NCBI RefSeq assembly: GCF_016026235.1 | Contig: NZ_CP065613.1 | DNA length: 64,000 nucleotides | Source: Escherichia coli | Lineage (GTDB): Bacteria > Pseudomonadota > Gammaproteobacteria > Enterobacterales > Enterobacteriaceae | Strand: one strand, 5' to 3' | Shown here: piece after piece, positions 22,132 through 62,702 of the stretch | Layout: each line of letters opens with the position of its first letter | How positions within the stretch are numbered: the stretch's first letter is position 1 | Made by a program: the position numbers and the translations under genes | The notes under the pieces: generated by a model | The model's database searches: none | Seen by the model: the letters and a program-made list of their open reading frames with translations, nothing else | What the model was told of the DNA's origin: nothing

Positions 22132-23261
22132 CACACGTTCTGCGCGCCAGAAGGCTGCTGACTGAAGAGGGATGGCTCGATGACCATCAGTTGCGTATTG
22201 CTGACGGTGTCATCGCAGCAATCGAACCGATTCCAGTGGGCGTGACTGAACGCGATGCGGAACTGCTCTGCCCCGCTTACATCGACACCCATGTACACGG
22301 TGGTGCGGGCGTTGATGTAATGGATGACGCGCCGGATGTGCTCGACAAGCTGGCAATGCACAAGGCACGCGAAGGTGTCGGCAGTTGGTTACCGACTACC
22401 GTAACCGCGCCGCTTAATACCATTCATGCGGCGCTGAAACGTATTGCGCAACGTTGCCAACGCGGCGGACCTGGTGCGCAAGTGCTGGGGAGTTATCTCG
22501 AAGGACCGTACTTCACGCCGCAGAATAAAGGCGCGCATCCGCCGGAGTTGTTTCGCGAGCTTGAAATTGCCGAGCTGGATCAATTGATTGCCGTTTCTCA
22601 GCACACCTTACGCGTGGTAGCGCTGGCACCGGAAAAAGAGGGGGCATTGCAGGCCATCCGCCATCTTAAACAGCAAAATGTACGAGTGATGCTGGGGCAT
22701 AGCGCGGCGACCTGGCAACAAACTCGCGCCGCGTTTGATGCTGGTGCCGACGGCCTGGTGCATTGCTATAACGGGATGACAGGTTTACATCACCGCGAAC
22801 CGGGAATGGTTGGCGCGGGATTAACGGACAAGCGCGCCTGGCTGGAACTGATAGCCGATGGTCATCATGTGCATCCGGCGGCGATGTCGCTGTGTTGTTG
22901 CTGTGCGAAAGAGAGAATCGTGCTGATCACCGACGCGATGCAGGCAGCCGGGATGCCGGATGGTCGCTATACGTTATGTGGCGAAGAAGTGCAGATGCAC
23001 GGTGGCGTTGTCCGTACCGCGTCCGGTGGGCTGGCGGGCAGTACGCTGTCTGTTGATGCGGCAGTGCGCAATATGGTCGAGTTGACGGGCGTAACGCCTG
23101 CGGAAGCCATTCATATGGCATCGCTGCATCCGGCGCGAATGCTAGGTGTTGATGGTGTTCTGGGATCGCTTAAACCGGGCAAACGCGCCAGCGTCGTTGC
23201 GCTGGATAGCGGGCTGCATGTGCAACAAATCTGGATTCAGGGTCAATTAGCTTCGTTTTGA
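22128..23261 (+). CDS. agaA: N-acetylgalactosamine-6-phosphate deacetylase (full length)
   Basis: ORF track 22107..23261; ATG at 22128 gives 377 aa, MTHVLRARRLL. Confidence 0.85.
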   Translation: MTHVLRARRLLTEEGWLDDHQLRIADGVIAAIEPIPVGVTERDAELLCPAYIDTHVHGGAGVDVMDDAPDVLDKLAMHKAREGVGSWLPTTVTAPLNTIHAALKRIAQRCQRGGPGAQVLGSYLEGPYFTPQNKGAHPPELFRELEIAELDQLIAVSQHTLRVVALAPEKEGALQAIRHLKQQNVRVMLGHSAATWQQTRAAFDAGADGLVHCYNGMTGLHHREPGMVGAGLTDKRAWLELIADGHHVHPAAMSLCCCCAKERIVLITDAMQAAGMPDGRYTLCGEEVQMHGGVVRTASGGLAGSTLSVDAAVRNMVELTGVTPAEAIHMASLHPARMLGVDGVLGSLKPGKRASVVALDSGLHVQQIWIQGQLASF

Positions 23262-23335: not shown

Positions 23336-23393
23336 GTGTCGGATGCGACGCTAACGCGTCTTATGCGACCTACGGTACGCCGCATCCGGCAAT
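23336..23393. repeat. REP-like palindromic element
   Basis: gtcggatgcgacgctaacgcgtcttatgcgacctac ... gccgcatccggc, REP-like dyad. Confidence 0.5.
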
Positions 23394-25733: not shown

Positions 25734-25742
25734 ATCAGTACA
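25734..25742. repeat. left copy of 9-bp target-site duplication ATCAGTACA
   Basis: Identical 9-mer directly abuts both IS1 ends. Confidence 0.9.
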
Positions 25743-25757
25743 GGTAATGACTCCAAC

Positions 25758-26261
25758 TTATTGATAGTGTTTTATGTTCAGATAATGCCCGATGACTTTG
25801 TCATGCAGCTCCACCGATTTTGAGAACGACAGCGACTTCCGTCCCAGCCGTGCCAGGTGCTGCCTCAGATTCAGGTTATGCCGCTCAATTCGCTGCGTAT
25901 ATCGCTTGCTGATTACGTGCAGCTTTCCCTTCAGGCGGGATTCATACAGCGGCCAGCCATCCGTCATCCATATCACCACGTCAAAGGGTGACAGCAGGCT
26001 CATAAGACGCCCCAGCGTCGCCATAGTGCGTTCACCGAATACGTGCGCAACAACCGTCTTCCGGAGACTGTCATACGCGTAAAACAGCCAGCGCTGGCGC
26101 GATTTAGCCCCGACATAGCCCCACTGTTCGTCCATTTCCGCGCAGACGATGACGTCACTGCCCGGCTGTATGCGCGAGGTTACCGACTGCGGCCTGAGTT
26201 TTTTAAGTGACGTAAAATCGTGTTGAGGCCAACGCCCATAATGCGGGCAGTTGCCCGGCAT
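25758..26261 (-). CDS. insB: IS1 InsB (transposase C-terminal part, made as InsAB' by -1 frameshift)
   Basis: 167-aa [25 protein letters not shown]... Confidence 0.9.
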
Positions 26262-26455
26262 CCAACGCCATTCATGGCCATATCAATGATTTTCTGGTGC
26301 GTACCGGGTTGAGAAGCGGTGTAAGTGAACTGCAGTTGCCATGTTTTACGGCAGTGAGAGCAGAGATAGCGCTGATGTCCGGCGGTGCTTTTGCCGTTAC
26401 GCACCACCCCGTCAGTAGCTGAACAGGAGGGACAGCTGATAGAAACAGAAGCCAC
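26180..26455 (-). CDS. insA: IS1 InsA (transposition inhibitor / transposase N-terminal part)
   Basis: 91-aa [43 protein letters not shown] (zinc-finger + HTH). Confidence 0.9.
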
Positions 26456-26510
26456 TGGAGCACCTCAAAAACACCATCATACACTAAATCAGTAAGTTGG
26501 CAGCATCACC

Positions 26511-28682: not shown

Positions 28683-29438
28683 ATGGAACGAGGCACTGCG
28701 TCTGGCGGTGCCTCTTTACTTAAGGAATTTCATCCTGTGCAAACCCTTCAGCAAGTTGAAAACTATACGGCGTTAAGTGAACGTGCCAGCGAATATTTAT
28801 TGGCCGTGATCCGTAGCAAACCGGATGCCGTGATTTGCCTGGCGACCGGAGCCACGCCATTACTGACGTATCATTATCTGGTAGAAAAAATCCACCTGCA
28901 GCAGGTTGATGTCAGCCAGCTCACCTTCGTCAAGCTCGACGAATGGGTGGATCTGCCATTAACGATGCCTGGCACCTGCGAAACTTTCCTGCAACAGCAT
29001 ATCGTGCAGCCGCTGGGGCTACGTGAAGACCAGCTCATCAGCTTTCGCTCCGAAGAGATAAATGAGACAGAGTGCGAACGGGTAACGAACCTGATTGCGC
29101 GCAAAGGCGGTCTGGATTTATGCGTTCTCGGATTGGGGAAAAACGGTCATCTTGGGCTGAACGAACCGGGAGAAAACCTGCAACCGGCCTGCCATATCAG
29201 TCAACTTGATGCCAGAACACAGCAACATGAGATGTTAAAAACCGCGGGTCGCCCCGTGACTCGTGGGATCACCTTAGGCCTGAAGGATATTCTCAATGCC
29301 CGCGAGGTTTTGTTACTGGTGACTGGCGAAGGAAAGCAGGATGCGACAGAACGTTTTCTCACGGCTAAAGTCTCTACCTCTATCCCGGCTTCGTTTTTGT
29401 GGCTGCACAGTAACTTTATTTGTTTAATTAATACCTAA
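28683..29438 (+). CDS. agaI: galactosamine-6-phosphate isomerase/deaminase-like (NagB family)
   Basis: 251-aa ORF. Confidence 0.85.
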   Translation: MERGTASGGASLLKEFHPVQTLQQVENYTALSERASEYLLAVIRSKPDAVICLATGATPLLTYHYLVEKIHLQQVDVSQLTFVKLDEWVDLPLTMPGTCETFLQQHIVQPLGLREDQLISFRSEEINETECERVTNLIARKGGLDLCVLGLGKNGHLGLNEPGENLQPACHISQLDARTQQHEMLKTAGRPVTRGITLGLKDILNAREVLLLVTGEGKQDATERFLTAKVSTSIPASFLWLHSNFICLINT

Positions 29439-29838
29439 CCAGATGAAAAATTTGCTCAAAATGTTTAAATTAACTTATTCAACAGTCACGCATTATATTA
29501 AATAACATTTGACTGGGTTGAACATAACGCCAATAGCAAAAGGAGTTATGTTCAACAATTTAATTTTAGATATACATATAACTTGTTCTATTAATAAACC
29601 ATCTCGTATTCTGACTCGCCCCTTGGCCCAGCAAAGTCAGGCATTTATACTCTTTTTAACACATAGAAAATTCATATAAATATAATAAAAACATCAAATA
29701 TTTGCATATAAATATAATCTTAAAGTTTAGCCTATTTAATGTTCAATGAAATATTTCTACCTGTATAATCTTTAAAGATGTTGAACATATATTCACATTA
29801 AATATGATTATGTACTTGTTACAAGGATAAGGTTATAA
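29439..29838 (+). promoter_or_regulatory. AT-rich upstream region of yraH fimbrial operon with direct and inverted repeats
   Basis: 400 bp strongly AT-rich; direct repeat catataaatataat twice; inverted repeat ttgaacataac...gttatgttcaa. Confidence 0.4.
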
Positions 29839-30423
29839 ATGAATAAAGTTACAAAAACAGCTATTGCGGGCTTACTTGCGCTTTTCGCAGGTAATGCCGC
29901 TGCAACCGATGGTGAAATAGTTTTTGATGGCGAGATTTTAAAATCCGCTTGTGAAATCAATGACTCTGATAAGAAAATTGAAGTTGCTCTTGGTCACTAT
30001 AATGCCGAACAGTTTCGTTCTGTAGGCGATCGTAGCCCAAAAATTCCATTCACTATTCCTTTAGTTAACTGCCCAGTGACTGGGTGGGAGCACGATAACG
30101 GCAACGTTGAAGCGTCTTTCCGTTTATGGCTGGAAACGCGGGATAATGGTACCGTCCCTAACTTCCCTAACTTGGCAAAAGTGGGCTCTTTTGCTGGCAC
30201 AGCAGCAACAGGTGTGGGTATCCGTATTGACGATGCGGAAAGCGGAAACCTTATGCCACTAAATGCTATGGGCAATGATAACACAGTTTATCAGATCCCT
30301 GCGGACTCCGCTGGAGTTGTTAATGTTGACCTCATCGCTTACTACGTATCAACCGTTGAAGCATCAGAAATCACCCCAGGGGAAGCAGACGCTGTCGTTA
30401 ACGTAACGCTGGATTACCGTTAA
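29839..30423 (+). CDS. yraH: fimbrial major subunit-like protein
   Basis: 194-aa ORF with signal peptide MNKVTKTAIAGLLALFAGNAAA. Confidence 0.85.
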   Translation: MNKVTKTAIAGLLALFAGNAAATDGEIVFDGEILKSACEINDSDKKIEVALGHYNAEQFRSVGDRSPKIPFTIPLVNCPVTGWEHDNGNVEASFRLWLETRDNGTVPNFPNLAKVGSFAGTAATGVGIRIDDAESGNLMPLNAMGNDNTVYQIPADSAGVVNVDLIAYYVSTVEASEITPGEADAVVNVTLDYR

Positions 30424-30502
30424 TACGTTACGGCGTTATCTGACCTTTCAGATAACGCCCTTTTCCTTCCTCTTTCTCGTTGTATCAGGTTGAAAAATAA
30501 CT

Positions 30503-31198
30503 ATGTCAAAACGAACATTCGCGGTGATATTTACCTTGTTGTGTAGCTTCTGTATCGGCCAGGCGCTTGCAGGGGGTATCGTTTTACAGCGAACGCGAGT
30601 GATCTATGATGCCAGCCGCAAAGAGGCTGCGTTACCTGTCGCAAACAAAGGCGCAGAAACACCTTATTTACTGCAATCATGGGTAGATAATATAGATGGT
30701 ACAAGCCGTGCCCCATTTATTATAACCCCACCGCTATTTCGTCTTGAAGCTGGCGATGATTCATCACTGCGAATTATTAAAACAGCTGATAACCTGCCTG
30801 AAAATAAAGAGTCGCTGTTCTACATTAATGTTCGTGCCATTCCAGCAAAGAAAAAATCAGATGATGTTAATGCTAACGAGTTGACGCTGGTATTTAAAAC
30901 ACGGATCAAAATGTTTTATCGCCCCGCACACTTGAAGGGGTTGGTCAACGATGCGTGGAAATCACTGGAATTTAAACTTAGTGATCATTCACTCAATATA
31001 TATAACCCAACTGAATATTACGTCGTATTTGCCGGACTGGCAGTCGATAAAGCCGATCTCACAAGCAAAATTGAATATATCGCGCCCGGAGAACATAAAC
31101 AGTTACCACTTCCAGCATCTGGCGGAAAGAACGTGAAATGGGCTGCAATCAATGATTATGGCGGCAGTTCCGGGACAGAAACTCGTCCACTGCAATAA
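30503..31198 (+). CDS. yraI: periplasmic fimbrial chaperone (PapD-like)
   Basis: 231-aa ORF with signal peptide. Confidence 0.85.
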
Positions 31199-31226
31199 CA
31201 AATATAAAAACACAGGTCATCAGGGA

Positions 31227-33743
31227 ATGCCACAACGACACCACCAGGGACATAAACGCACACCGAAACAGTTGGCGCTCATTATCAAACGCTGTTTGCC
31301 GATGGTGCTCACTGGCAGCGGCATGCTTTGCACTACCGCTAACGCCGAAGAGTATTATTTCGACCCCATTATGCTGGAAACCACAAAAAGTGGTATGCAA
31401 ACAACCGATCTGTCACGTTTTTCAAAAAAATACGCACAACTACCAGGAACTTATCAGGTTGATATCTGGCTGAATAAAAAGAAGGTTTCACAGAAAAAAA
31501 TTACATTTACCGCCAATGCAGAGCAACTTCTGCAGCCACAGTTTACGGTAGAACAACTACGTGAGCTGGGTATTAAGGTGGATGAAATCCCGGCGCTGGC
31601 TGAAAAAGATGACGATAGCGTGATCAACTCGCTTGAACAAATCATTCCCGGTACAGCTGCTGAATTTGATTTCAATCATCAGCGACTTAATTTGAGCATT
31701 CCCCAAATTGCACTGTACCGTGATGCAAGAGGTTACGTCTCCCCTTCTCGTTGGGACGATGGTATACCAACGCTGTTTACCAACTACTCGTTTACAGGTT
31801 CTGATAACCGTTACCGCCAGGGCAATCGTAGCCAACGACAGTACCTGAATATGCAAAATGGTGCTAATTTTGGCCCCTGGCGATTACGCAACTATTCCAC
31901 ATGGACACGCAACGATCAGACATCAAGCTGGAATACCATCAGTAGTTATTTACAACGTGATATCAAGGCATTGAAGTCTCAGTTGCTTCTGGGAGAAAGC
32001 GCCACCAGCGGCAGTATTTTTTCCAGCTACACCTTTACTGGCGTGCAACTCGCTTCCGACGATAATATGTTGCCAAACAGCCAGCGCGGATTTGCCCCAA
32101 CGGTACGCGGTATCGCAAACAGTAGTGCAATCGTGACTATCAGGCAAAATGGTTATGTGATCTATCAAAGCAACGTGCCAGCGGGTGCCTTTGAAATTAA
32201 CGATCTCTACCCCTCTTCCAACAGCGGCGATTTAGAAGTCACGATTGAAGAAAGTGACGGTACGCAACGTCGCTTTATCCAGCCTTATTCTTCATTACCC
32301 ATGATGCAGCGACCTGGGCATCTAAAATATAGCGCGACCGCTGGACGCTATCGCGCTGATGCAAACAGTGATAGCAAAGAACCCGAATTTGCTGAAGCCA
32401 CGGCAATATATGGTTTGAATAATACTTTTACGCTGTATGGCGGCCTGCTCGGTTCTGAAGATTATTATGCGCTGGGGATCGGTATCGGCGGCACACTTGG
32501 CGCACTGGGCGCGTTGTCGATGGATATCAACAGAGCTGACACCCAATTCGATAACCAGCACTCTTTTCATGGCTATCAATGGCGTACGCAGTACATCAAA
32601 GATATCCCGGAAACCAACACCAATATCGCTGTCAGCTACTATCGCTATACCAACGATGGCTATTTTAGTTTTGATGAAGCCAATACCCGCAATTGGGACT
32701 ATAACAGTCGCCAAAAAAGTGAAATTCAATTCAACATCAGCCAGACAATATTTGATGGGGTAAGTCTGTATGCCTCCGGTTCACAGCAAGACTATTGGGG
32801 CAATAACGAGAAAAACAGGAATATCTCTGTTGGGGTTTCCGGCCAGCAATGGGGAATTGGTTACAGCCTGAATTATCAATACAGCCGCTACACTGATCAA
32901 AATAATGACCGCGCACTCTCTTTGAATCTCAGTATTCCGTTAGAACGCTGGTTACCGCGTAGCCGGGTTTCCTATCAGATGACCAGCCAGAAAGATCGCC
33001 CAACCCAACATGAAATGCGTCTTGATGGCTCACTGCTGGATGATGGTCGCCTGAGCTATAGCCTGGAACAAAGTCTGGATGACGATAACAACCATAACAG
33101 TAGCCTGAACGCCAGTTACCGTTCACCTTATGGAACCTTCAGTGCCGGATACAGTTACGGTAATGACAGCAGCCAATACAATTACGGCGTTACCGGCGGC
33201 GTGGTTATCCATCCTCATGGCGTGACGCTCTCGCAATATCTGGGCAACGCTTTTGCGCTTATCGATGCTAACGGGGCATCTGGCGTGAGGATACAAAACT
33301 ATCCGGGGATTGCTACCGATCCCTTTGGCTATGCAGTGGTTCCTTATCTCACAACTTATCAGGAAAACCGTCTCTCGGTAGATACTACGCAGCTGCCCGA
33401 TAACGTCGATCTTGAACAAACAACACAGTTTGTGGTGCCCAACAGAGGTGCAATGGTAGCGGCGCGTTTCAACGCCAATATCGGTTATCGCGTACTTGTT
33501 ACAGTCAGCGATCGCAACGGTAAACCGTTGCCCTTTGGCGCTCTTGCCAGCAACGATGATACGGGGCAACAAAGTATCGTCGATGAGGGCGGCATACTAT
33601 ATCTCTCTGGGATATCGAGTAAATCACAAAGCTGGACTGTACGCTGGGGAAATCAGGCAGATCAACAATGTCAGTTTGCTTTTAGTACACCGGGTTCAGA
33701 ACCAACAACCTCTGTATTACAAGGCACAGCGCAGTGCCATTAA
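31227..33743 (+). CDS. yraJ: outer-membrane fimbrial usher
   Basis: ORF track 31152..33743; start placed at MPQRHHQGHK (838 aa). Confidence 0.8.
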   Translation: MPQRHHQGHKRTPKQLALIIKRCLPMVLTGSGMLCTTANAEEYYFDPIMLETTKSGMQTTDLSRFSKKYAQLPGTYQVDIWLNKKKVSQKKITFTANAEQLLQPQFTVEQLRELGIKVDEIPALAEKDDDSVINSLEQIIPGTAAEFDFNHQRLNLSIPQIALYRDARGYVSPSRWDDGIPTLFTNYSFTGSDNRYRQGNRSQRQYLNMQNGANFGPWRLRNYSTWTRNDQTSSWNTISSYLQRDIKALKSQLLLGESATSGSIFSSYTFTGVQLASDDNMLPNSQRGFAPTVRGIANSSAIVTIRQNGYVIYQSNVPAGAFEINDLYPSSNSGDLEVTIEESDGTQRRFIQPYSSLPMMQRPGHLKYSATAGRYRADANSDSKEPEFAEATAIYGLNNTFTLYGGLLGSEDYYALGIGIGGTLGALGALSMDINRADTQFDNQHSFHGYQWRTQYIKDIPETNTNIAVSYYRYTNDGYFSFDEANTRNWDYNSRQKSEIQFNISQTIFDGVSLYASGSQQDYWGNNEKNRNISVGVSGQQWGIGYSLNYQYSRYTDQNNDRALSLNLSIPLERWLPRSRVSYQMTSQKDRPTQHEMRLDGSLLDDGRLSYSLEQSLDDDNNHNSSLNASYRSPYGTFSAGYSYGNDSSQYNYGVTGGVVIHPHGVTLSQYLGNAFALIDANGASGVRIQNYPGIATDPFGYAVVPYLTTYQENRLSVDTTQLPDNVDLEQTTQFVVPNRGAMVAARFNANIGYRVLVTVSDRNGKPLPFGALASNDDTGQQSIVDEGGILYLSGISSKSQSWTVRWGNQADQQCQFAFSTPGSEPTTSVLQGTAQCH

Positions 33744-33753
33744 GGATAAAAAA

Positions 33754-34845
33754 ATGAAAAGAGCGCCTCTTATAACAGGACTTTTGTTGATATCCACATC
33801 CTGCGCTTATGCCTCCTCAGGAGGGTGTGGAGCCGACAGCACTAGCGGTGCGACAAATTACAGCAGTGTGGTTGATGATGTTACGGTGAACCAGACAGAT
33901 AACGTGACAGGACGGGAGTTTACCTCTGCAACGCTAAGTAGCACTAACTGGCAATACGCCTGTTCCTGCTCTGCGGGTAAGGCAGTTAAACTTGTCTATA
34001 TGGTCAGCCCCGTACTTACCACCACTGGACATCAGACAGGATATTACAAACTCAATGACAGCCTGGATATTAAAACCACATTACAGGCAAACGACATTCC
34101 AGGACTCACAACCGACCAGGTTGTCTCTGTTAACACCCAATTCACACAGATAAAAAGCAGCACCGTATATTCTGCTGCAACCCAAACGGGTGTTTGCCAG
34201 GGTGACACGTCTCGTTATGGACCCGTTAATATTGGTGCAAATACCACCTTTACCCTGTATGTCACCAAGCCATTTCTCGGCTCGATGACCATTCCGAAAA
34301 CGGATATTGCCGTCATTAAAGGCGCGTGGGTCGATGGAATGGGAAGCCCGTCTACAGGTGACTTCCATGATTTAGTCAAGTTATCGATTCAGGGAAATCT
34401 CACCGCCCCACAGTCGTGCAAAATTAATCAGGGCGATGTTATTAAGGTTAATTTTGGATTCATCAATGGTCAGAAGTTTACCACCCGCAATGCCATGCCA
34501 GACGGTTTTACTCCAGTAGACTTTGATATCACTTATGACTGTGGTGATACTTCAAAGATTAAAAACTCGTTGCAAATGCGCATCGACGGTACAACTGGGG
34601 TAGTAGACCAGTACAACCTGGTCGCCAGGCGAAGAAGTTCAGACAATGTGCCCGATGTCGGTATTCGTATTGAAAATCTCGGCGGCGGAGTTGCAAATAT
34701 TCCTTTTCAGAACGGTATCCTTCCCGTTGATCCTTCCGGGCATGGCACCGTCAATATGCGCGCCTGGCCAGTTAATCTGGTCGGTGGTGAGCTGGAAACA
34801 GGAAAATTTCAGGGCACAGCCACCATTACCGTCATCGTGCGGTAA
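33754..34845 (+). CDS. yraK: fimbrial adhesin-like protein
   Basis: ORF track 33496..34845; ATG at 33754 gives MKRAPLITGLLLISTSCAYA signal peptide, 363 aa. Confidence 0.8.
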   Translation: MKRAPLITGLLLISTSCAYASSGGCGADSTSGATNYSSVVDDVTVNQTDNVTGREFTSATLSSTNWQYACSCSAGKAVKLVYMVSPVLTTTGHQTGYYKLNDSLDIKTTLQANDIPGLTTDQVVSVNTQFTQIKSSTVYSAATQTGVCQGDTSRYGPVNIGANTTFTLYVTKPFLGSMTIPKTDIAVIKGAWVDGMGSPSTGDFHDLVKLSIQGNLTAPQSCKINQGDVIKVNFGFINGQKFTTRNAMPDGFTPVDFDITYDCGDTSKIKNSLQMRIDGTTGVVDQYNLVARRRSSDNVPDVGIRIENLGGGVANIPFQNGILPVDPSGHGTVNMRAWPVNLVGGELETGKFQGTATITVIVR

Positions 34846-34852
34846 AAGAAGA

Positions 34853-34876
34853 CGTTGCGTTTTGATTAACGCAACG
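34853..34876. terminator. bidirectional hairpin between convergent yraK and rsmI
   Basis: cgttgcgtt-ttgatt-aacgcaacg hairpin with flanking A-run. Confidence 0.5.
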
Positions 34877-34887
34877 CTTCGGCACTG

Positions 34888-35748
34888 TTACTCCTGCTGC
34901 TCCAGCGCATACTTATACAGCGCATTTTTCTTCACGCCGTGAATTTCTGCGGCCAGCGCCGCCGCTTTTTTCAGCGGCAGTTCTGCCTGTAGCAGAGCCA
35001 GCGTGCGCAGGGCATCAGCAGGCAGGTCTTCTTCCTGTGCTTTATGACCTTCGACAATCAGCACCATTTCGCCTTTGCGACGGTTTTCATCTTCCTTTAC
35101 CCACGCCAGCAGCTCGCCAACGGGCGCGCCGTGAATGGTTTCCCAGGTTTTGGTCAGCTCACGCGCCAGAACCACGTAGCGGGATTCGCCTAATACCGCA
35201 ACGATATCTTCCAGGCTATCTAACAGACGGTGGGTAGATTCATAAAAAATCAGCGTGCGCGGCTCCGCTTCAATGGCTTTTAGCGCATCACGGCGGCCTT
35301 TTGATTTGGCAGGTAAAAAGCCTTCGTAACAGAAACGGTCAGAGGGTAAACCCGCGGCGCTTAACGCAGTGATAGCAGCACACGGTCCGGGTAGCGGCAC
35401 CACACGAATCCCCGCTTCACGGCAGGTACGCACCAGATGGTAGCCAGGATCGTTAATTAGCGGCGTTCCGGCATCGGAAACCAGCGCAATGTTTTGCCCC
35501 TCTTGCAGCTTCGCCAGCAACGTTTCGGCTTTTTGTTGTTCGTTATGGTCGTGCAGCGCAAACAACCGGGCATTAATCCCAAAATGTTGCAGCAATAAAC
35601 CGGTGTGACGAGTATCCTCGGCGGCAATCAGATCAACGGCCTGTAATACCTCTAACGCACGCTGGGTGATATCCGCCAGATTGCCGATTGGCGTCGGTAC
35701 AATGTAAAGCTGGCCCTGAGAATTATCCGCCGATTGGTGTTGTTTCAT
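34888..35748 (-). CDS. rsmI: 16S rRNA 2'-O-ribose C1402 methyltransferase
   Basis: 286-aa ORF. Confidence 0.9.
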
Positions 35749-38821: not shown

Positions 38822-39397
38822 ATGAAGGCATTATCGCCAATCGCAGTCCTTATTTCCGCGCTGCTGTTGCAAGGTTGTGTTGCCGCTGCCGTAGTGGGTA
38901 CCGCTGCTGTGGGTACCAAAGCCGCAACTGACCCACGCAGTGTCGGCACCCAGGTGGACGATGGTACCCTGGAAGTGCGCGTGAACAGCGCATTGTCGAA
39001 AGACGAACAGATTAAGAAAGAAGCGCGCATTAATGTAACGGCCTATCAGGGCAAAGTGCTGCTGGTTGGGCAGTCACCAAACGCTGAACTTTCGGCTCGC
39101 GCCAAACAGATTGCTATGGGCGTAGACGGTGCCAACGAAGTGTATAACGAGATTCGTCAGGGCCAGCCGATTGGTCTGGGCGAAGCGTCTAATGATACGT
39201 GGATCACCACCAAAGTGCGTTCGCAGCTCTTAACCAGCGACCTGGTGAAATCGTCCAACGTGAAAGTGACCACCGAAAACGGTGAAGTGTTCCTGATGGG
39301 GCTGGTGACTGAACGTGAAGCGAAAGCGGCGGCAGATATTGCCAGCCGGGTGAGCGGCGTGAAGCGGGTAACTACGGCGTTTACGTTTATTAAATAG
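38822..39397 (+). CDS. dolP: dual-BON-domain outer-membrane lipoprotein
   Basis: 191-aa ORF, lipobox LLQGC. Confidence 0.9.
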   Translation: MKALSPIAVLISALLLQGCVAAAVVGTAAVGTKAATDPRSVGTQVDDGTLEVRVNSALSKDEQIKKEARINVTAYQGKVLLVGQSPNAELSARAKQIAMGVDGANEVYNEIRQGQPIGLGEASNDTWITTKVRSQLLTSDLVKSSNVKVTTENGEVFLMGLVTEREAKAAADIASRVSGVKRVTTAFTFIK

Positions 39398-39404
39398 CAG
39401 CCCC

Positions 39405-39500
39405 TTGTAATGCCTGATGCGACGCTTGCCGCGTCTTATCAGGCCTACAACGATGCAAACCGTAGGTCGGATAAGGCGTTTACGCCGCATCCGACATGTT
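39405..39500. repeat. BIME composed of two REP elements
   Basis: gcctgatgcgacgcttgccgcgtcttatcaggcctac and gtaggtcggataaggcgtttacgccgcatccgacat. Confidence 0.7.
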
Positions 39501-39510
39501 TTCCCTCAAA

Positions 39511-40551
39511 TCAGAACAACAGCGCCAGCCCGCCGACAATCACACCAGACACTGCCACCATCGCCCCTGTCAGCCATAAGGCTTTCGCCGGGAACGCTTT
39601 GCGCAGCATAATCAGTGACGGCAAACTCACTGCCGGGAGCGTCATCAACAATGCCAGCGCCGGAGCGGTTCCCATACCTGCCAGCATCATCGTTTGTACA
39701 ATCGGAATTTCTGCTGCCGTGGGAATGACAAACAAGCATCCTGCTACCGCCATCGCCACCACCCACATCAGGCTGTTATCGACAGCACCATCGGCATGGG
39801 GGAATAACCAGACGCGAGCGGCACCCAACACCAGTACTGCAAGGATGTAAACCGGGATCGTACTCCAGAAAAGCGTCCATAGCGCCCTGCCCCAGCGGCT
39901 AAAAAATCCGCCCTGTGCTTCCGGTATGTCAATTTCGACCGGTGCTTGCGTTTGCGGTGTTTCACGCACCCATTTTTGCACCAGCGTCGCAATCAGCAAC
40001 ACCATCACCAGCCCCGCCACCAGACGAATCGCCACAAACCCCCAGCCGAGGACGAACCCCATAAACACCAGCGTCGCCGGGTTTAACAACGGATTGCCCA
40101 TCCAGAATGCCAGCGCACCGCCCATCGACACCTGTTGGCGACGCATTCCCGCCGCGACCGGAGCCGCACAGCAGGTACACATCATGCCCGGCAGCGAAAA
40201 CAGCGTTCCCAGCAGCGTGCCGCGAAAGCGCGATTGCCCAAGCGTACGCAACAACCAGTCACGCGGGATCAGCACCTGAATCAACGAACCGAGGATCACC
40301 CCCAGCACCGCCGCTTTCCATACTGCGAGGAAATAGATCATCGCGTAATCCAACGCCGCTTGCCACGGATTAGCATCCGCCTGCGCAAGGATAGATTTAC
40401 CGATACTGTGGGTTTCGGCAGCAGTAAACGCTTTGCCGTAGTAAGGTTGCCATTTCACATACCAGAGACCGGCAATGACAACGAGAAAGAAAAGCGCGGG
40501 TTTCCACCACTGAATGGGCGTTGCCGCCTGAGATGAAGACTGACCAGTCAT
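39511..40551 (-). CDS. yraQ: putative permease YraQ
   Basis: 346-aa membrane ORF. Confidence 0.85.
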   Translation of the reverse strand: MTGQSSSQAATPIQWWKPALFFLVVIAGLWYVKWQPYYGKAFTAAETHSIGKSILAQADANPWQAALDYAMIYFLAVWKAAVLGVILGSLIQVLIPRDWLLRTLGQSRFRGTLLGTLFSLPGMMCTCCAAPVAAGMRRQQVSMGGALAFWMGNPLLNPATLVFMGFVLGWGFVAIRLVAGLVMVLLIATLVQKWVRETPQTQAPVEIDIPEAQGGFFSRWGRALWTLFWSTIPVYILAVLVLGAARVWLFPHADGAVDNSLMWVVAMAVAGCLFVIPTAAEIPIVQTMMLAGMGTAPALALLMTLPAVSLPSLIMLRKAFPAKALWLTGAMVAVSGVIVGGLALLF

Positions 40552-45780: not shown

Positions 45781-45910
45781 GTAAATATGCTCGTCATACT
45801 TCAAGTTGCATGTGCTGCATCTGCATTCGTTCACCCCAGTCACTTACTTATGTAAGCTCCTGGGGATTCACTCTCTTGTCGCCTTCCTGCAACTCGAATT
45901 ATTTAGAGCA

Positions 45911-45983
45911 CAGCTCACTTTGTTAACAACTTTAACTACTCTTTAATGCAGTATTAAAGATTAATCGGTAACAAAGTGAGCTG
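45911..45983 (+). promoter_or_regulatory. nested inverted repeat immediately upstream of yhbW start codon
   Basis: 15-bp perfect arms CAGCTCACTTTGTTA (45911..45925) / TAACAAAGTGAGCTG (45969..45983) enclosing inner hairpin ctttaat-gcagt-attaaag; ATG at 45986. Confidence 0.5.
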
Positions 45984-45985
45984 TT

Positions 45986-46993
45986 ATGACTGATAAAACC
46001 ATTGCGTTTTCGCTACTCGATCTGGCCCCCATTCCCGAAGGTTCTTCAGCGCGAGAAGCATTCTCCCACTCTCTCGATCTCGCCCGTCTGGCTGAAAAGC
46101 GCGGCTATCATCGCTACTGGCTGGCAGAACACCACAATATGACTGGCATTGCCAGTGCTGCCACGTCGGTATTGATTGGCTATCTGGCGGCGAATACCAC
46201 CACGCTGCATCTGGGGTCTGGCGGCGTGATGTTGCCTAACCACTCACCGTTGGTCATTGCCGAACAGTTCGGCACGCTCAATACACTCTATCCGGGGCGA
46301 ATCGATTTGGGGCTGGGTCGTGCGCCAGGTAGTGACCAACGGACAATGATGGCGCTGCGTCGCCATATGAGCGGCGATATTGATAATTTCCCCCGCGATG
46401 TCGCGGAGCTGGTGGACTGGTTTGACGCCCGCGATCCCAATCCGCATGTGCGCCCGGTACCAGGCTATGGCGAGAAAATCCCCGTGTGGTTGTTAGGCTC
46501 CAGCCTTTACAGCGCGCAACTGGCGGCGCAGCTTGGTCTGCCGTTCGCGTTTGCCTCACACTTCGCGCCGGATATGTTGTTCCAGGCGCTGCATCTTTAT
46601 CGCAGCAACTTCAAACCGTCGGCACGACTGGAAAAACCATACGCGATGGTGTGCATCAATATTATCGCCGCCGACAGCAACCGCGATGCTGAGTTTCTGT
46701 TTACCTCAATGCAGCAAGCCTTTGTGAAGTTGCGCCGTGGCGAAACCGGGCAACTGCCGCCACCGATTCAAAATATGGATCAGTTCTGGTCGCCGTCCGA
46801 ACAGTATGGTGTGCAGCAGGCGCTGAGTATGTCGTTGGTAGGTGATAAAGCGAAAGTGCGTCATGGCTTGCAGTCGATCCTGCGCGAAACCGACGCCGAT
46901 GAGATTATGGTCAACGGGCAGATTTTCGACCACCAGGCGCGGCTGCATTCGTTTGAGCTGGCGATGGATGTTAAGGAAGAGTTGTTGGGATAG
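45986..46993 (+). CDS. yhbW: luciferase-like (flavin-dependent) monooxygenase
   Basis: 335-aa ORF. Confidence 0.85.
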
Positions 46994-46999
46994 TGTGTC

Positions 47000-47105
47000 T
47001 TAACGCGGGAAGCCTTATCCGAGCTGGCAACGCTGTCCTACGTAGACCTGATAAGCGAAGCGCATCAGGCATTGTGTAGGCAGCAGAAATGTCGGATAAG
47101 GCACC
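47000..47105. repeat. REP/BIME-like palindromic elements
   Basis: gccttatccgagctggcaacg, cctgataagcgaagcgcatcaggc, tgtcggataaggcaccgc. Confidence 0.55.
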
Positions 47106-47110
47106 GCTGA

Positions 47111-48355
47111 TTACTGATACACCGGCAGTAAATTAAAGCTCGATAAAATATGGACCAGTGCGTTGCCAACGCCAAACACCAGAATCAGCGTAATCATCGG
47201 CTTGCCGCCCCAGACGCGGAATTTCGGGCTGCCAAAGCGTTTACGCGATGCGCGGGCTAACAGCGCCGGAACAATTGCCGCCCAGATGGTAGCTGCTAAA
47301 CCAGCATAACCAATGGCGTACAGGAATCCGTTCGGGAACAGTAGACCACCCACAACAGGCGGGGCAAAGGTCAGCAATGCCGTTTTCAAGCGCCCCAGGG
47401 CTGAGTCATCGAAACCAAACAGATCTGCCAGATAGTCAAACAAACCCAGCGTTACGCCAAGGAACGAACTCGCTACCGCAAAGTTTGAGAACACGACCAG
47501 CAGAAGGTCCAGGCTACGGCTGTTCAGCACGCCGCTTAATGCCTGTACCAGCACATCAATATTACCGCCCTTCTCTGCAATACCGATAAACTCCGGACGC
47601 GGGATGTTACCCATCGTCGCCAGCAACCAGATGGTATACAGCGCCAGTGCCATCAGCGTACCGTACACCAGGCATTTCACGATGGTTTTCGGATCTTTGC
47701 CGTAATACTTCATCAGGCTTGGCACGTTACCGTGATAACCAAACGACGCCAGGCAGAACGGCAATGTCATCAGCAGATACGGCGCATAAGATGCATTGCT
47801 TTCTGCAACGTTGAACAATGTCGCAGGCTGCACATGCCCCAACAGGCTGCCAAAGGTGAGGAAGAAGGTAATGACTTTCGCCCCCAGCACAATCGCCGTC
47901 ATGCGGCTGACGGCCTTAGTACTCAACCACACCACAAACGCTACCAGCAGTGCAAAACCAAAACCCGCCGCCCGTGCCGGGACGTTTAGCGACATCTCTG
48001 CGAAGGTGTGATGCAGAATTGAACCACTGGCAGAAATATAGGCATAGGTCAGGATATAGAGCACAAAGGCAATGGAAATACCGTTGACCACGTTCCAGCC
48101 TTTGCCCAGCAAATCTTTGGTGATGGTGTCAAAACTCGAACCGATTCGGTAATTCAGGTTAGCTTCCAGAATCATCAAGCCGGAATGCAGCATACAGAAC
48201 CAGGTAAAGATCAGCGCCGCCATTGACCAGAAAAACCACGCCCCGGACATGACCACTGGCAGAGAAAACATCCCTGCGCCAATAATGGTGCCGCCGATAA
48301 TCACCACGCCGCCAAGCAGCGACGGTGACGTTTGGGTGGTGGTTAGTGTTGCCAT
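47111..48355 (-). CDS. mtr: tryptophan-specific permease
   Basis: 414-aa membrane ORF. Confidence 0.9.
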
Positions 48356-55716: not shown

Positions 55717-55737
55717 AATAAATTCTCCTGACAAAAA

Positions 55738-55754
55738 AGGGGCTGTTAGCCCCT
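55738..55754 (-). terminator. hairpin between infB and rbfA (attenuator/partial terminator)
   Basis: aggggctgttagcccct hairpin with flanking A/T runs. Confidence 0.4.
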
Positions 55755-55789
55755 TTTTAAAAATTAATTTCAGGTGGAAGGGCTGTTCA

Positions 55790-55875
55790 CGTTGGCCTGA
55801 TAAGACGCGCCAGCGTCACATCAGGCAATCCATGCCGGATGCGGCGTAAACGCCTTATCCCGCATGGAACCCTAA
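55790..55875. repeat. REP-like palindromic elements
   Basis: ggcctgataagacgcgccagcgtcacatcaggc and gccggatgcggcgtaaacgccttatcccgcatgg. Confidence 0.6.
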
Positions 55876-55880
55876 AAACC

Positions 55881-58553
55881 TTAAGCGATGGTACGTTGGA
55901 TCTCGATGATTTCGAATACTTCGATCACATCGCCAGTGCGGACGTCGTTGTAGTTCTTAACGCCGATACCACATTCCATACCGTTACGGACTTCGTTAAC
56001 GTCATCTTTGAAGCGGCGCAGGGACTCCAGCTCGCCTTCATAGATAACCACGTTGTCACGCAGAACGCGGATCGGGTTGTGACGTTTAACCACACCTTCG
56101 GTAACCATACAGCCTGCGATGGCACCAAATTTCGGCGATTTGAACACGTCACGAACTTCCGCCAGACCGATAATCTGCTGTTTCAGTTCCGGAGACAGCA
56201 TACCGCTCATCGCCGCTTTCACTTCGTCGATCAGGTTATAGATGACGGAGTAGTAACGCAGATCCAGGCTTTCCGCTTCAATCACTTTACGTGCAGAGGC
56301 ATCAGCACGTACGTTGAAGCCAACCAGGATGGCGTTGGACGCCGCAGCCAGGGTGGCGTCGGTTTCGGTGATACCACCTACGCCAGAACCGATGATCTTC
56401 ACTTTAACTTCGTCAGTAGACAGTTTCAGCAAGGAGTCGGAGATCGCTTCCACAGAACCCTGTACGTCTGCCTTCAGGACGATATTCACTTCGTGAACTT
56501 CGCCTTCGGTCATGTTGGCGAACATGTTCTCGAGTTTAGATTTCTGCTGACGCGCCAGTTTAACTTCGCGGAATTTACCCTGACGATAGAGTGCAACTTC
56601 ACGCGCTTTCTTCTCGTCACGTACAACGGTAACTTCATCACCCGCAGCCGGAACACCGGATAAGCCGAGGATTTCCACCGGAATGGACGGACCCGCTTCC
56701 AGCACTTCCTGACCCAGTTCGTTACGCATCGCACGAACACGACCGTATTCGAAGCCACACAGAACGATATCGCCCTTGTGCAGAGTACCTTCACGTACCA
56801 GAACGGTAGCAACCGGACCACGACCTTTATCGAGGAAGGATTCGATAACCGCACCGCTCGCCATACCTTTACGTACCGCTTTCAGCTCCAGAACTTCCGC
56901 CTGCAGCAGGATAGCGTCCAGCAGTTCATCGATACCGGTACCCGCTTTCGCAGATACGTGTACGAACTGGCTTTCACCGCCCCACTCTTCCGGCAGGATG
57001 CCGTACTGGGAGAGTTCGTTCTTAACGCGATCCGGATCGGCTTCTGGTTTATCGATCTTGTTCACTGCAACCACCACCGGTACCTGCGCCGCTTTCGCGT
57101 GCTGGATTGCTTCGATGGTCTGCGGCATTACGCCGTCGTCGGCAGCAACAACCAGGACTACGATGTCAGTTGCCTGCGCACCACGTGCACGCATTGAAGT
57201 AAACGCAGCGTGCCCCGGGGTGTCCAGGAAGGTGATCATGCCGTTTTCAGTTTCAACGTGGTATGCACCAATGTGCTGGGTAATGCCGCCCGCTTCGCCA
57301 GAGGCCACTTTCGTTGAGCGAATGTAGTCCAGCAGAGAGGTTTTACCGTGGTCAACGTGACCCATGATGGTCACAACCGGCGCGCGCGGTTCAGCCGCAG
57401 CACCCGTGTCACGGTCGCTCATTACCGCCTCTTCCAGCTCGTTTTCACGACGCAGGATAACTTTGTGGCCCATCTCTTCAGCAACCAGCTGTGCGGTTTC
57501 CTGATCGATAACCTGGTTGATGGTTGCCATTGCGCCCAGTTTCATCATCGCTTTGATGACCTGAGAGCCTTTAACCGCCATCTTGTTCGCCAGTTCGCCA
57601 ACGGTGATGGTTTCGCCGATCACAACGTCACGGTTAACGGCCTGAGCTGGCTTCTGGAAGCCTTGCTGCAGGGAAGAACCTTTACGTTTTCCGCCTTTAC
57701 CGCCACGTACTGCTGCGCGTGCTTCTTCACGATCAGCTTTTGATTCAGCGTGTTTGTTGCCTTTCTTCGGACGCGCTGCTTTCGCGTTACGACCACGGCC
57801 ACGGCCGCCTTCGACTTCACGATCGCTTTCGTCTTCTGCCTGGCGAGCATGTTGAGAAGTAGTGACGTGATAATCGCTGGAATCTTCAGTCGGTTCCGCG
57901 TTATCAGTCCATTTGTTTTCTTCCGCCATACGACGTGCTTCTTCAGCAACGCGACGTGCTTCTTCTTCGAGTTTACGACGCGCTTCTTCTTCGGCTTTAC
58001 GCTTGAGCTCTGCAGCTTCCTGCTCACGGCGGGCTTTTTCAGCTTGGGCGTTTTTAGTCATATCGTCTTGTTGATTGCTCACTTTGTCTTTTTCCGCAGC
58101 TTCACGTTTCGCTTGTTCAGCAGCTTCACGCTTAGCTTGTTCTGCGGCCTCACGTTCAGCTTTTTGTTGCGCCTCGCGTTTAGCCGATTCTTCTGCCTCA
58201 CGACGGGCTTGCTCTTCCGCTTCACGCTGCGCTTGCTCTTCCGCTGCAAGGCGTTCAGCCTCTTGCGGATCGCGTTTCACAAAGGTGCGTTTCTTGCGGA
58301 CTTCGATTTGTACCGATTTGCTTTTTCCACCGGTACCAGGAATGTTAAGGGTGCTGCGTGTTTTACGTTGCAGCGTCAATTTGTCCGGGCCTGAATTTTT
58401 CTGATTCAGGTGGTCAATCAAAGTCTGTTTCTCTTGTGCAGACACAGAGTCGTCAGCAGACTTCCGGATACCTGCATCAGCAAATTGCTGTACCAGGCGT
58501 TCCACGGAGGTCTGTCGCTCTGCGGCCAGCGTTTTAATCGTTACATCTGTCAT
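55881..58553 (-). CDS. infB: translation initiation factor IF-2
   Basis: 890-aa ORF with GTPase motifs [12 protein letters not shown] / DTPGH. Confidence 0.95.
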
Positions 58554-61160: not shown

Positions 61161-62519
<1,359 letters not shown>

Positions 62520-62540
62520 TATCATAGCTTTCGTGCTAAA

Positions 62541-62563
62541 GGCCGCAAATGCGGCCTTTTTTT
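62541..62563 (+). terminator. rho-independent terminator after argG
   Basis: ggccgcaaatgcggcc followed by T7. Confidence 0.7.
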
Positions 62564-62702
62564 ACGGCTAAGAGAATGTGACTGCGTTTAGGGGCCACCA
62601 TGTCCGAATTCGGAATTAAAGTAAAAGTTAAATGAAATAAAGTAAATTTCAGCGCATTCTATTTTTGCTTTATGTTTTTATGCTCAGTAAAAGGAATGAC
62701 CG

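Follow-up and report, generated by a model that had tools for sequence, protein, structure and literature searches.

REP units and BIME-type arrangements in four intergenic spacers of an Escherichia coli chromosome segment

REPs are imperfect hairpin repeats of 30-40 nt, tagged with GTAG, that accumulate in transcribed spacers located 3′ of genes. Their classes y, z1 and z2 are 35, 29 and 37 nt long, respectively, and a mismatch bulge, AA opposite GC, is conserved in the stem. Four intergenic sites in a stretch of 64,000 nucleotides of E. coli DNA (the window) were compared with the described arrangements of these units. In the Gilson/Bachellier nomenclature (in Ton-Hoang et al. 2012, PMC3333891), BIME-2 are formed by alternating Y and Z2 REPs with short linkers, the same composition found at the dolP and infB-rbfA sites. 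A copy number that varies between strains defines BIME-2; the dolP locus has 1, 2 and 4 units in different species. However, BIME-2 occur as tandem arrays and each of these window loci is a single pair; no tandem REP arrays were detected in the window. With BIME-1/RIP-RIB (Y plus Z1 and a long, IHF-binding L linker), the yhbW site shares a Z1 unit with Y-like flanks, but its Y parts are fragments. None of the four spacers includes an L linker or a match to the IHF consensus (WATCAANNNNTTR), and BIME-1/RIP identity was therefore rejected. The linkers between paired REPs in the window are 5-13 nt long. REPINs, the REP doublets mobilized by RAYTs (Bertels & Rainey 2011, PMC3116915), consist of inverted REPs with a short spacer, as do the dolP and infB-rbfA pairs. 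Unlike REPINs, E. coli pairs join a Y to a Z, two distinct REP classes, and undergo tandem amplification; GTAG is also missing from the infB-rbfA copy. The infB-rbfA pair also aligns over the whole 77-nt model of REP325/naRNA4 (RF02564), Y followed by Z2. While REP325 has six pairs, the infB-rbfA site has one, its linker is 6 nt shorter, its GTAG tails are mutated, and, unlike REP325, it is located inside the nusA-infB operon, just before the terminator t3. A 2026 preprint disputes that naRNA4 itself has a role in the nucleoid. Another family, BoxC/PIT/TMECO ('potential intrastrand triplex', PMC4666352), is found as an alternative allele in the same convergent-gene spacers that contain REPs in the window; its sequence (CCCTCTCCCC..GGGGAGAGGGTTAGGGTGAGGGG) is unrelated to REPs and it is absent from the window. 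Catalogues of E. coli REPs and BIMEs go back to the 1980s, and the loci described here behave as predicted, so they carry little weight as a discovery; a useful by-product is a natural allelic series, including occupancy by IS621 at yhbW-mtr. No earlier mention of the infB-rbfA or dolP REPs was found in the literature, PMC6511841 included, and no curated REP features are present in the copy of the MG1655 RefSeq record that was examined.

The window is a segment of a non-K-12 E. coli chromosome with the arrangement tdc–gar–aga–dolP–mtr–pnp–infB–argG; a K-12 origin was discarded because the aga operon is intact. Several strains are 100% identical to the window over the 1.4 kb around dolP, and 7.9 kb of the window is 100% identical to strain FDAARGOS_943. 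Gene positions were obtained by mapping onto annotated strains with correction for indels, followed by ORF checks. The genes flanking the four sites end or start as follows:

39395-39397, plus strand: dolP stop, convergent with yraQ
39511-39513, minus strand: yraQ stop, convergent with dolP
46991-46993, plus strand: yhbW stop, convergent with mtr
47111-47113, minus strand: mtr stop, convergent with yhbW
55881-55883, minus strand: infB stop, tandem with rbfA in one operon
55716, minus strand: rbfA start, tandem with infB in one operon
23259-23261, plus strand: nagA/agaA stop, tandem with agaS
23612, plus strand: agaS start, tandem with nagA/agaA

The gene context that a first-pass annotation of this DNA had assigned to the four sites agrees with these mapped positions. 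None of the four REP sites lies within a gene; dolP and yhbW are in convergent spacers, infB-rbfA and agaS in tandem ones, which matches the reported distribution of E. coli REPs (about 60% between convergent and about 40% between tandem genes). Three data sets were used for comparison: the four spacers extracted from eight other E. coli strains, 80 species-level Enterobacteriaceae genomes located via Mtr, and 5,426 complete E. coli genomes for the frequency counts.

The reference Y, short Z and long Z REPs were those quoted in Durrant et al. 2024 (PMC11208160). Alignment to these classes, the check that the first-pass annotation had proposed, together with the sequence itself and its inverted-repeat arms, located REP-type imperfect palindromes at the four places where they had been noticed. 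The units and linker are:

39411/39412-39448, minus strand (GTAG-first): Z2 (long-Z) REP after dolP, 35/37, 60 bits, hairpin in the fold
39449-39461, no strand: tail-to-tail linker AACGATGCAAACC, 13 nt, without an IHF site
39462-39496/39497, plus strand: Y REP GTAGGTCGGATAAGGCGTTTACGCCGCATCCGACAT, 33/35, supported by the fold
47005-47021/47022, plus strand: left Y-like fragment GCCTTATCCGA, 15/18 to Y, outer stem of a nested palindrome
47041-47070/47073, plus strand: Z1 (short-Z) REP GTAGACCTGATAAGCGAAGCGCATCAGGCA, 28/30 to the published Z1
47092/47093-47102, plus strand: right Y-like fragment TCGGATAAGGC, from inverted repeat, alignment and fold
55790-55826/55827, plus strand: Z2 REP with GTAG changed to GTTG, 35/37, part of the Rfam naRNA4 match
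55829-55868 (aligned 55833-55863), minus strand: Y REP with the GGCCTAC tail replaced, 30/31 to Y positions 1-31
23337-23373 (Z2-aligned 23342-23374), minus strand: diverged REP, 28/33 to Z2, 30 bits
23376-23391, plus strand: distal half Y TACGCCGCATCCGGCA, 16/16 to Y positions 1-16

The five full units match the published classes at 35/37, 33/35, 28/30, 35/37 and 30/31 positions, and the two partial units, both at the agaS site, at 28/33 and 16/16. As a control for chance, the consensus sequences were compared by blastn-short with 30 dinucleotide-preserving shuffles of the window. The best shuffle score was 28.2 bits; the five full REP units scored 44-60 bits and the two partial agaS units 30-32 bits. 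No further REP site above the shuffle ceiling was found by blastn-short elsewhere in the 64 kb, and the earlier list of four sites is therefore complete. Each of 5,425 complete E. coli genomes, out of 5,426, has at least 40 places matching the 96-nt dolP unit. REP identity was also examined for failure to align and for single-copy status, and neither was seen. The sites have inverted-repeat arms and form hairpins in minimum free energy folds (z = -4.4 to -6.9; weaker at agaS, -2.7), and RNA folding is strong on both strands, again with the exception of the weaker agaS site. The stem bulge can be read as GAT-AA-G...C-GC-ATC in the two dolP REPs and in the Y of infB-rbfA; that of the infB-rbfA Z2 is AA/AC. 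The GTAG tag is unchanged at dolP (both units), in the yhbW Z1 and in the agaS REP; the infB-rbfA Z2 has GTTG, and the Y beside it has lost the tag. Taken at the level of sequence, these results indicate that the four sites very probably belong to the REP (palindromic unit) family of E. coli and represent its classes Y, Z1 and Z2 (probability about 0.92). They are already known in kind and lie in typical contexts; what the first-pass annotation observed is confirmed and its reading is supported. Class alignment and the high copy number of the dolP unit bear out its phrase "typical enterobacterial repeats". Its term "clusters" holds for dolP and infB-rbfA, which are two-REP units, but it overstates yhbW and agaS because in the window strain yhbW has remnants beside a single intact REP and agaS has 1½ REPs.

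Two readings place the palindromes outside the REP family. Short inverted repeats are frequent in intergenic DNA, and the fold of the agaS site just modestly beats its shuffles, as would be seen if the palindromes were chance GC-rich inverted repeats. The shuffle control, the identity to the consensus and the genome-wide multiplicity all contradict this idea, which is refuted and retains practically no probability. The hairpins could instead be locus-specific bidirectional intrinsic terminators between convergent genes, unrelated to any repeat family. Two of the sites indeed separate convergent genes, both strands give very stable folds, the mtr-yhbW spacer of Atlantibacter is a plain 25-nt hairpin, and about 40% of convergent-gene REPs overlap predicted bidirectional terminators according to the literature. 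However, the nearly base-for-base match to the REP classes and the presence of at least 40 copies per genome make such an identity extremely improbable. Furthermore, a T-run terminator-like site was sought on the dolP REPs and none was found, and in the infB-rbfA spacer the true terminator is another, conserved hairpin located downstream of the REPs. A plain-terminator identity is refuted; terminator activity is still compatible with REP identity.

The REP units after dolP were expected to be two in a BIME arrangement, and the alignment shows a Z2 and a Y REP placed tail-to-tail. As judged from the sequence, this site is a single BIME-2-type unit composed of Z2, 13 nt and Y. The Z2, which in the plus-strand reading is TGCCTGATGCGACGC..GCGTCTTATCAGGCCTAC, begins 14 nt past the dolP stop codon, and the Y stem begins 15 nt past the yraQ stop codon on the minus strand. 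This Y departs from the reference at two positions, C>T and G>A, and these two bases form a pair. A single Z2-Y unit follows dolP in 7 of 9 E. coli alleles, the window included. The strain comparison of copy number suggested in the first-pass annotation revealed variation between species: among the nine E. coli alleles and the two other species inspected, E. coli has one unit, E. whittamii two and E. albertii four. The linker AACGATGCAAACC recurs in the tandem units of E. whittamii. In E. albertii, only the 3′ end of yraQ is left after the eight-REP array and a YraQ protein match was not found; yraQ therefore appears to be truncated beside the amplified BIME. In most other genera the dolP-yraQ spacer is 26-80 nt long and REP-free. 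Since spacers at positions corresponding to the window sites are REP-free in many related genera, REPs are not required at these positions.

The two remaining E. coli alleles of the dolP-yraQ spacer have an unrelated filler of 121 nt instead of REPs. Its reverse complement is CCCTCTCCCCTTTGGGGAGAGGGTTAGGGTGAGGGG, and by comparison with Table 1 of PMC4666352 this sequence is identified as a type-A BoxC/TMECO element. Its position in one of these strains is:

L005:20099-20219: BoxC/TMECO element in the dolP-yraQ spacer of strain 18KM2445

The full-length BoxC allele was found at dolP-yraQ in 429 of the 5,426 genomes (7.9%), and the BoxC core is scattered over the genome at a median of 17 places. 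BoxC also replaces the REPs in the mtr-yhbW spacer of 'E. coli E69' (locus L011). Two unrelated repeat families thus alternate at the same convergent-gene spacers, dolP-yraQ and mtr-yhbW.

The first-pass annotation had described the repeats as "potential IS or recombination targets", and three kinds of observations directly support it: an exact IS621 target inside the dolP Z2, IS621 copies inserted in the yhbW REP tail, and whole spacers exchanged for BoxC or extra genes. IS621 is a bridge-RNA recombinase element, and its natural target is the 11-nt sequence ATCAGGCCTAC, with a CT core, in the REP tail (PMC11208160). The exact target in the window is:

39438-39448, plus strand: natural IS621 target ATCAGGCCTAC in the tail of the dolP Z2, core CT, by pattern match

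At the yhbW-mtr site, the Z1 tail ATCAGGTCTAC (47042-47052) is one mismatch from ATCAGGCCTAC. Strain 2012C-4606 carries IS621 at the CT core of the Z1 REP tail (L004:27748-29026, orthologous to window position 47046). The junctions read GTAG|ATACTGT...ATACA|AGACC, with AGACCTGATAAG as the right flank, and they reconstruct a donor ACAGTAT-CT-TGTAT and a target ATCAGGT-CT-AC. Of the 5,426 genomes, 411 (7.6%) have an IS621 junction in the GTAG tail of this REP. In strain 18KM2445, as well as in H59, the yhbW-mtr spacer was exchanged for 1.44 kb with two genes (L005:27555-29022), one for a murein L,D-transpeptidase-family protein and one for a hypothetical protein, the first of which overlaps the 3′ end of yhbW. 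The yhbW-mtr and dolP-yraQ spacers are therefore polymorphic hot spots, with IS621 in 7.6% of the genomes, BoxC in 7.9% and the two-gene insertion in some strains.

The yhbW-mtr site has one intact REP, the Z1, nested between two Y fragments in a larger palindrome. The Y fragments form a perfect inverted repeat of 11 nt, in which the left fragment pairs with 47092-47102, and the composite fold has z values of -4.4/-5.0. By its sequence composition, this site is a partial or atypical BIME. Other genera have different REP pairs at yhbW-mtr, and Atlantibacter has the bare 25-nt hairpin.

The agaS site is likewise a partial or atypical BIME, as read from the alignments. Its diverged REP has a Z2-like inner stem and loop on a Y-like GTCGGAT foot, with the plus-strand CTAC intact. 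This '1½ REP' allele was found in 2,812 of the 5,426 genomes. K-12-type genomes have two complete REPs at this site and match the window allele over the first ~45 nt only. An inversion was considered as the origin of the two alleles and was set aside, the palindromic sequence being ambiguous in this respect; the difference is described as an equal-length segmental replacement. The proposed strain comparison thus found two alleles each at the agaS and infB-rbfA sites.

From its sequence, the infB-rbfA site is a pair of BIME-2 type in which 5-6 nt separate a Z2 from a Y placed head-to-head. On the mRNA, the Y begins 12 nt past the infB stop codon; it has 19-nt arms, its fold has a z value of -6.9, and an additional stem of 7 bp, TCCATGC/GCATGGA, is formed between linker and tail. 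The window allele is the majority allele, with at least 80% coverage in 4,738 of the 5,426 genomes. The canonical GGCCTAC tail of the Y is kept in strains 18KM2445 and Z142-4, and the GTAG of the Z2 in 18KM2445. The same spacer contains a second hairpin:

55733-55759, minus strand: terminator-type hairpin AAAAAGGGGCU-AAC-AGCCCCUUUUUU, non-REP, from sequence and fold

This hairpin adjoins the rbfA ribosome-binding site on its upstream side and is the counterpart of t3, a terminator published as lying 'just upstream of rbfA' (PMC6511841). A consensus terminator scan did not call it, probably because its A/U flanks extend the stem and use up the T-run. Across genera, the sole conserved part of the infB-rbfA spacer is this hairpin, AAAAGGGGC-N-GCCCCTTTTTT, together with the rbfA ribosome-binding site, and both are conserved across Enterobacteriaceae (loci L010-L089). 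The gap between the infB stop and t3 is empty in Atlantibacter, Cedecea and Shimwellia, where the spacer is 62-64 nt long, and in other genera it is occupied by Y plus Z2, by Y plus Z1, or by a single GTAGGCCGGGTAAGCGAAGCGCCACCCGGCA-type palindrome (GCCGGGTAAGCG..CCACCCGGC). The rimP-nusA-infB transcript of ~4.8 kb ends at t3, and infB mRNA is about twice as abundant as rbfA mRNA (PMC6511841). Since the transcripts end at t3, the REP pair sits in the 3′ end of the rimP-nusA-infB transcripts.

Two further readings concern this pair alone. Rfam RF02564 (naRNA4) matches it with 75.6 bits at 55794-55864 on the minus strand, over the full model, on the transcribed strand of the operon and above the gathering score of 59.5. 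Matches to the model in the window are limited to the dolP, infB-rbfA and agaS sites, so that an independently curated model agrees with the REP assignment; the halves of the dolP site score 32-38 bits, below threshold, and the scores of the other sites taken together are 23-38 bits, also sub-threshold. Taken at face value, the match would designate a naRNA4-type sRNA gene whose product binds HU and condenses the chromosome. However, the RF02564 consensus is itself a Y REP plus linker plus Z2 REP, so any such pair scores, and the linker of the infB-rbfA pair is 6 nt shorter than that of the model. A promoter of its own was sought in the infB-rbfA spacer and none was found. In addition, the 2026 preprint describes REP325/naRNA4 as a local 3′-UTR element without measurable nucleoid compaction. 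An sRNA gene at this position is very unlikely, and a 'naRNA4' match in the infB-rbfA spacer should be annotated as a REP pair. The other reading takes the pair as domesticated, that is, immobilized and under selection for a cis effect on the stability of the infB transcript or on read-through into rbfA. Neither GTAG tail survives, and TnpA_REP does not accept a mutated GTAG; the changes in linker and tail are mutually complementary and add the 7-bp stem; the allele is present in 4,738/5,426 genomes; a GTAG-tagged palindrome lies between the infB stop and t3 in many genera; and the transcripts end at t3, with the twofold excess of infB over rbfA mRNA. Nonetheless, the REP class turns over between genera and several genera have no REP in their 62-64-nt spacer. 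This turnover fits repeated neutral insertion into a permissive site, and hairpin-templated mutation could have produced complementary changes without selection. A permissive site would fit the pattern equally well, and domestication, which is not exclusive of the REP-family explanation, is possible although unlikely. If it did take place, the majority allele would tune the stability of the infB 3′ end at t3 or the read-through into rbfA-truB. Doubtful too is the joint proposal that the infB-rbfA pair is domesticated and that REP/BIME and BoxC compete for convergent spacers, altering the expression of the neighbors. If true, dolP-yraQ offers a natural allelic series, with the REP pair in ~92% and BoxC in ~8% of the genomes. 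The REP and BoxC alleles of dolP-yraQ and the two infB-rbfA alleles are natural material on the effects of REPs on their neighbors.

For the four sites as members of the REP family, the literature suggests how they may have spread and what they may do. REPs would be spread and reshaped on single-stranded DNA by the Y1 transposase TnpA_REP (RAYT), which depends on the stem bulge and on an unmutated GTAG and is able to recombine BIMEs. The gene for this enzyme, tnpA_REP (yafL-fhiA region), lies outside the window. Recombination of BIMEs by TnpA_REP would explain the tandem amplification at dolP in the sister species, and the infB-rbfA pair is predicted to be immobile, not a TnpA_REP substrate, because both of its GTAG tails are lost. 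In RNA, the likely role of the hairpins is that of local 3′-UTR elements, as barriers to 3′-to-5′ decay and as partial, partly Rho-dependent terminators. The mRNA-stabilizing role put forward in the first-pass annotation is thus plausible from the literature; genome-wide, terminal REPs do not lengthen half-lives. Liang, Rudd & Deutscher (2015) are cited for the finding that a REP can reduce translation of the ORF preceding it if fewer than 16 nt separate the REP from the stop codon, and with stop-to-REP distances of 14 (dolP), 15 (yraQ) and 12 nt (infB), upstream translation may drop at these genes. The suggestion that the repeats mark domain boundaries is weakened because the 2026 preprint found no long-range REP-REP contacts.

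Other differences between strains were observed in the window. The kbaY-agaB spacer has an insertion of 768 bp (25742-26510) with respect to all eight comparison strains. Its matches elsewhere are annotated as IS1-like (IS1A/IS1B) transposase, and none of the genomes listed has IS1 at this position. In the agaI-rsmI interval (29407-34893), the window has the yraHIJK fimbrial operon, F9792 a LysR regulator and an MBL-fold hydrolase, and Ecol_AZ153 and Z142-4 nothing. Just 3′ of rnpB (9558-9934, minus strand), at 9519-9546, the window lacks ~254 nt found in F9792; the alignments overlap by 28 nt, and a repeated segment may therefore differ in copy number between the two. The window itself showed no tandem array. 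An ERIC/IRU-like element of ~125 nt is located at ~45791-45913, in the ubiV-yhbW spacer. It contains ATGTAAGCTCCTGGGGATTCAC, which we take to be the ERIC1R primer sequence, and matches Rfam V_AS5 with a sub-threshold score of 38.8 bits. The ubiV-yhbW spacer is ~205 nt in the window, F9792, 2012C-4606 and FDAARGOS_943 and 80 nt in MG1655, Ecol_AZ153, Z142-4, RM6067W and 18KM2445, and the presence of the element is therefore strain-dependent. At 62511-63733, yhbX is replaced by a ~950-bp gene for a helix-turn-helix-domain protein, as in FDAARGOS_943, followed directly by tRNA-Leu (63734-63817).
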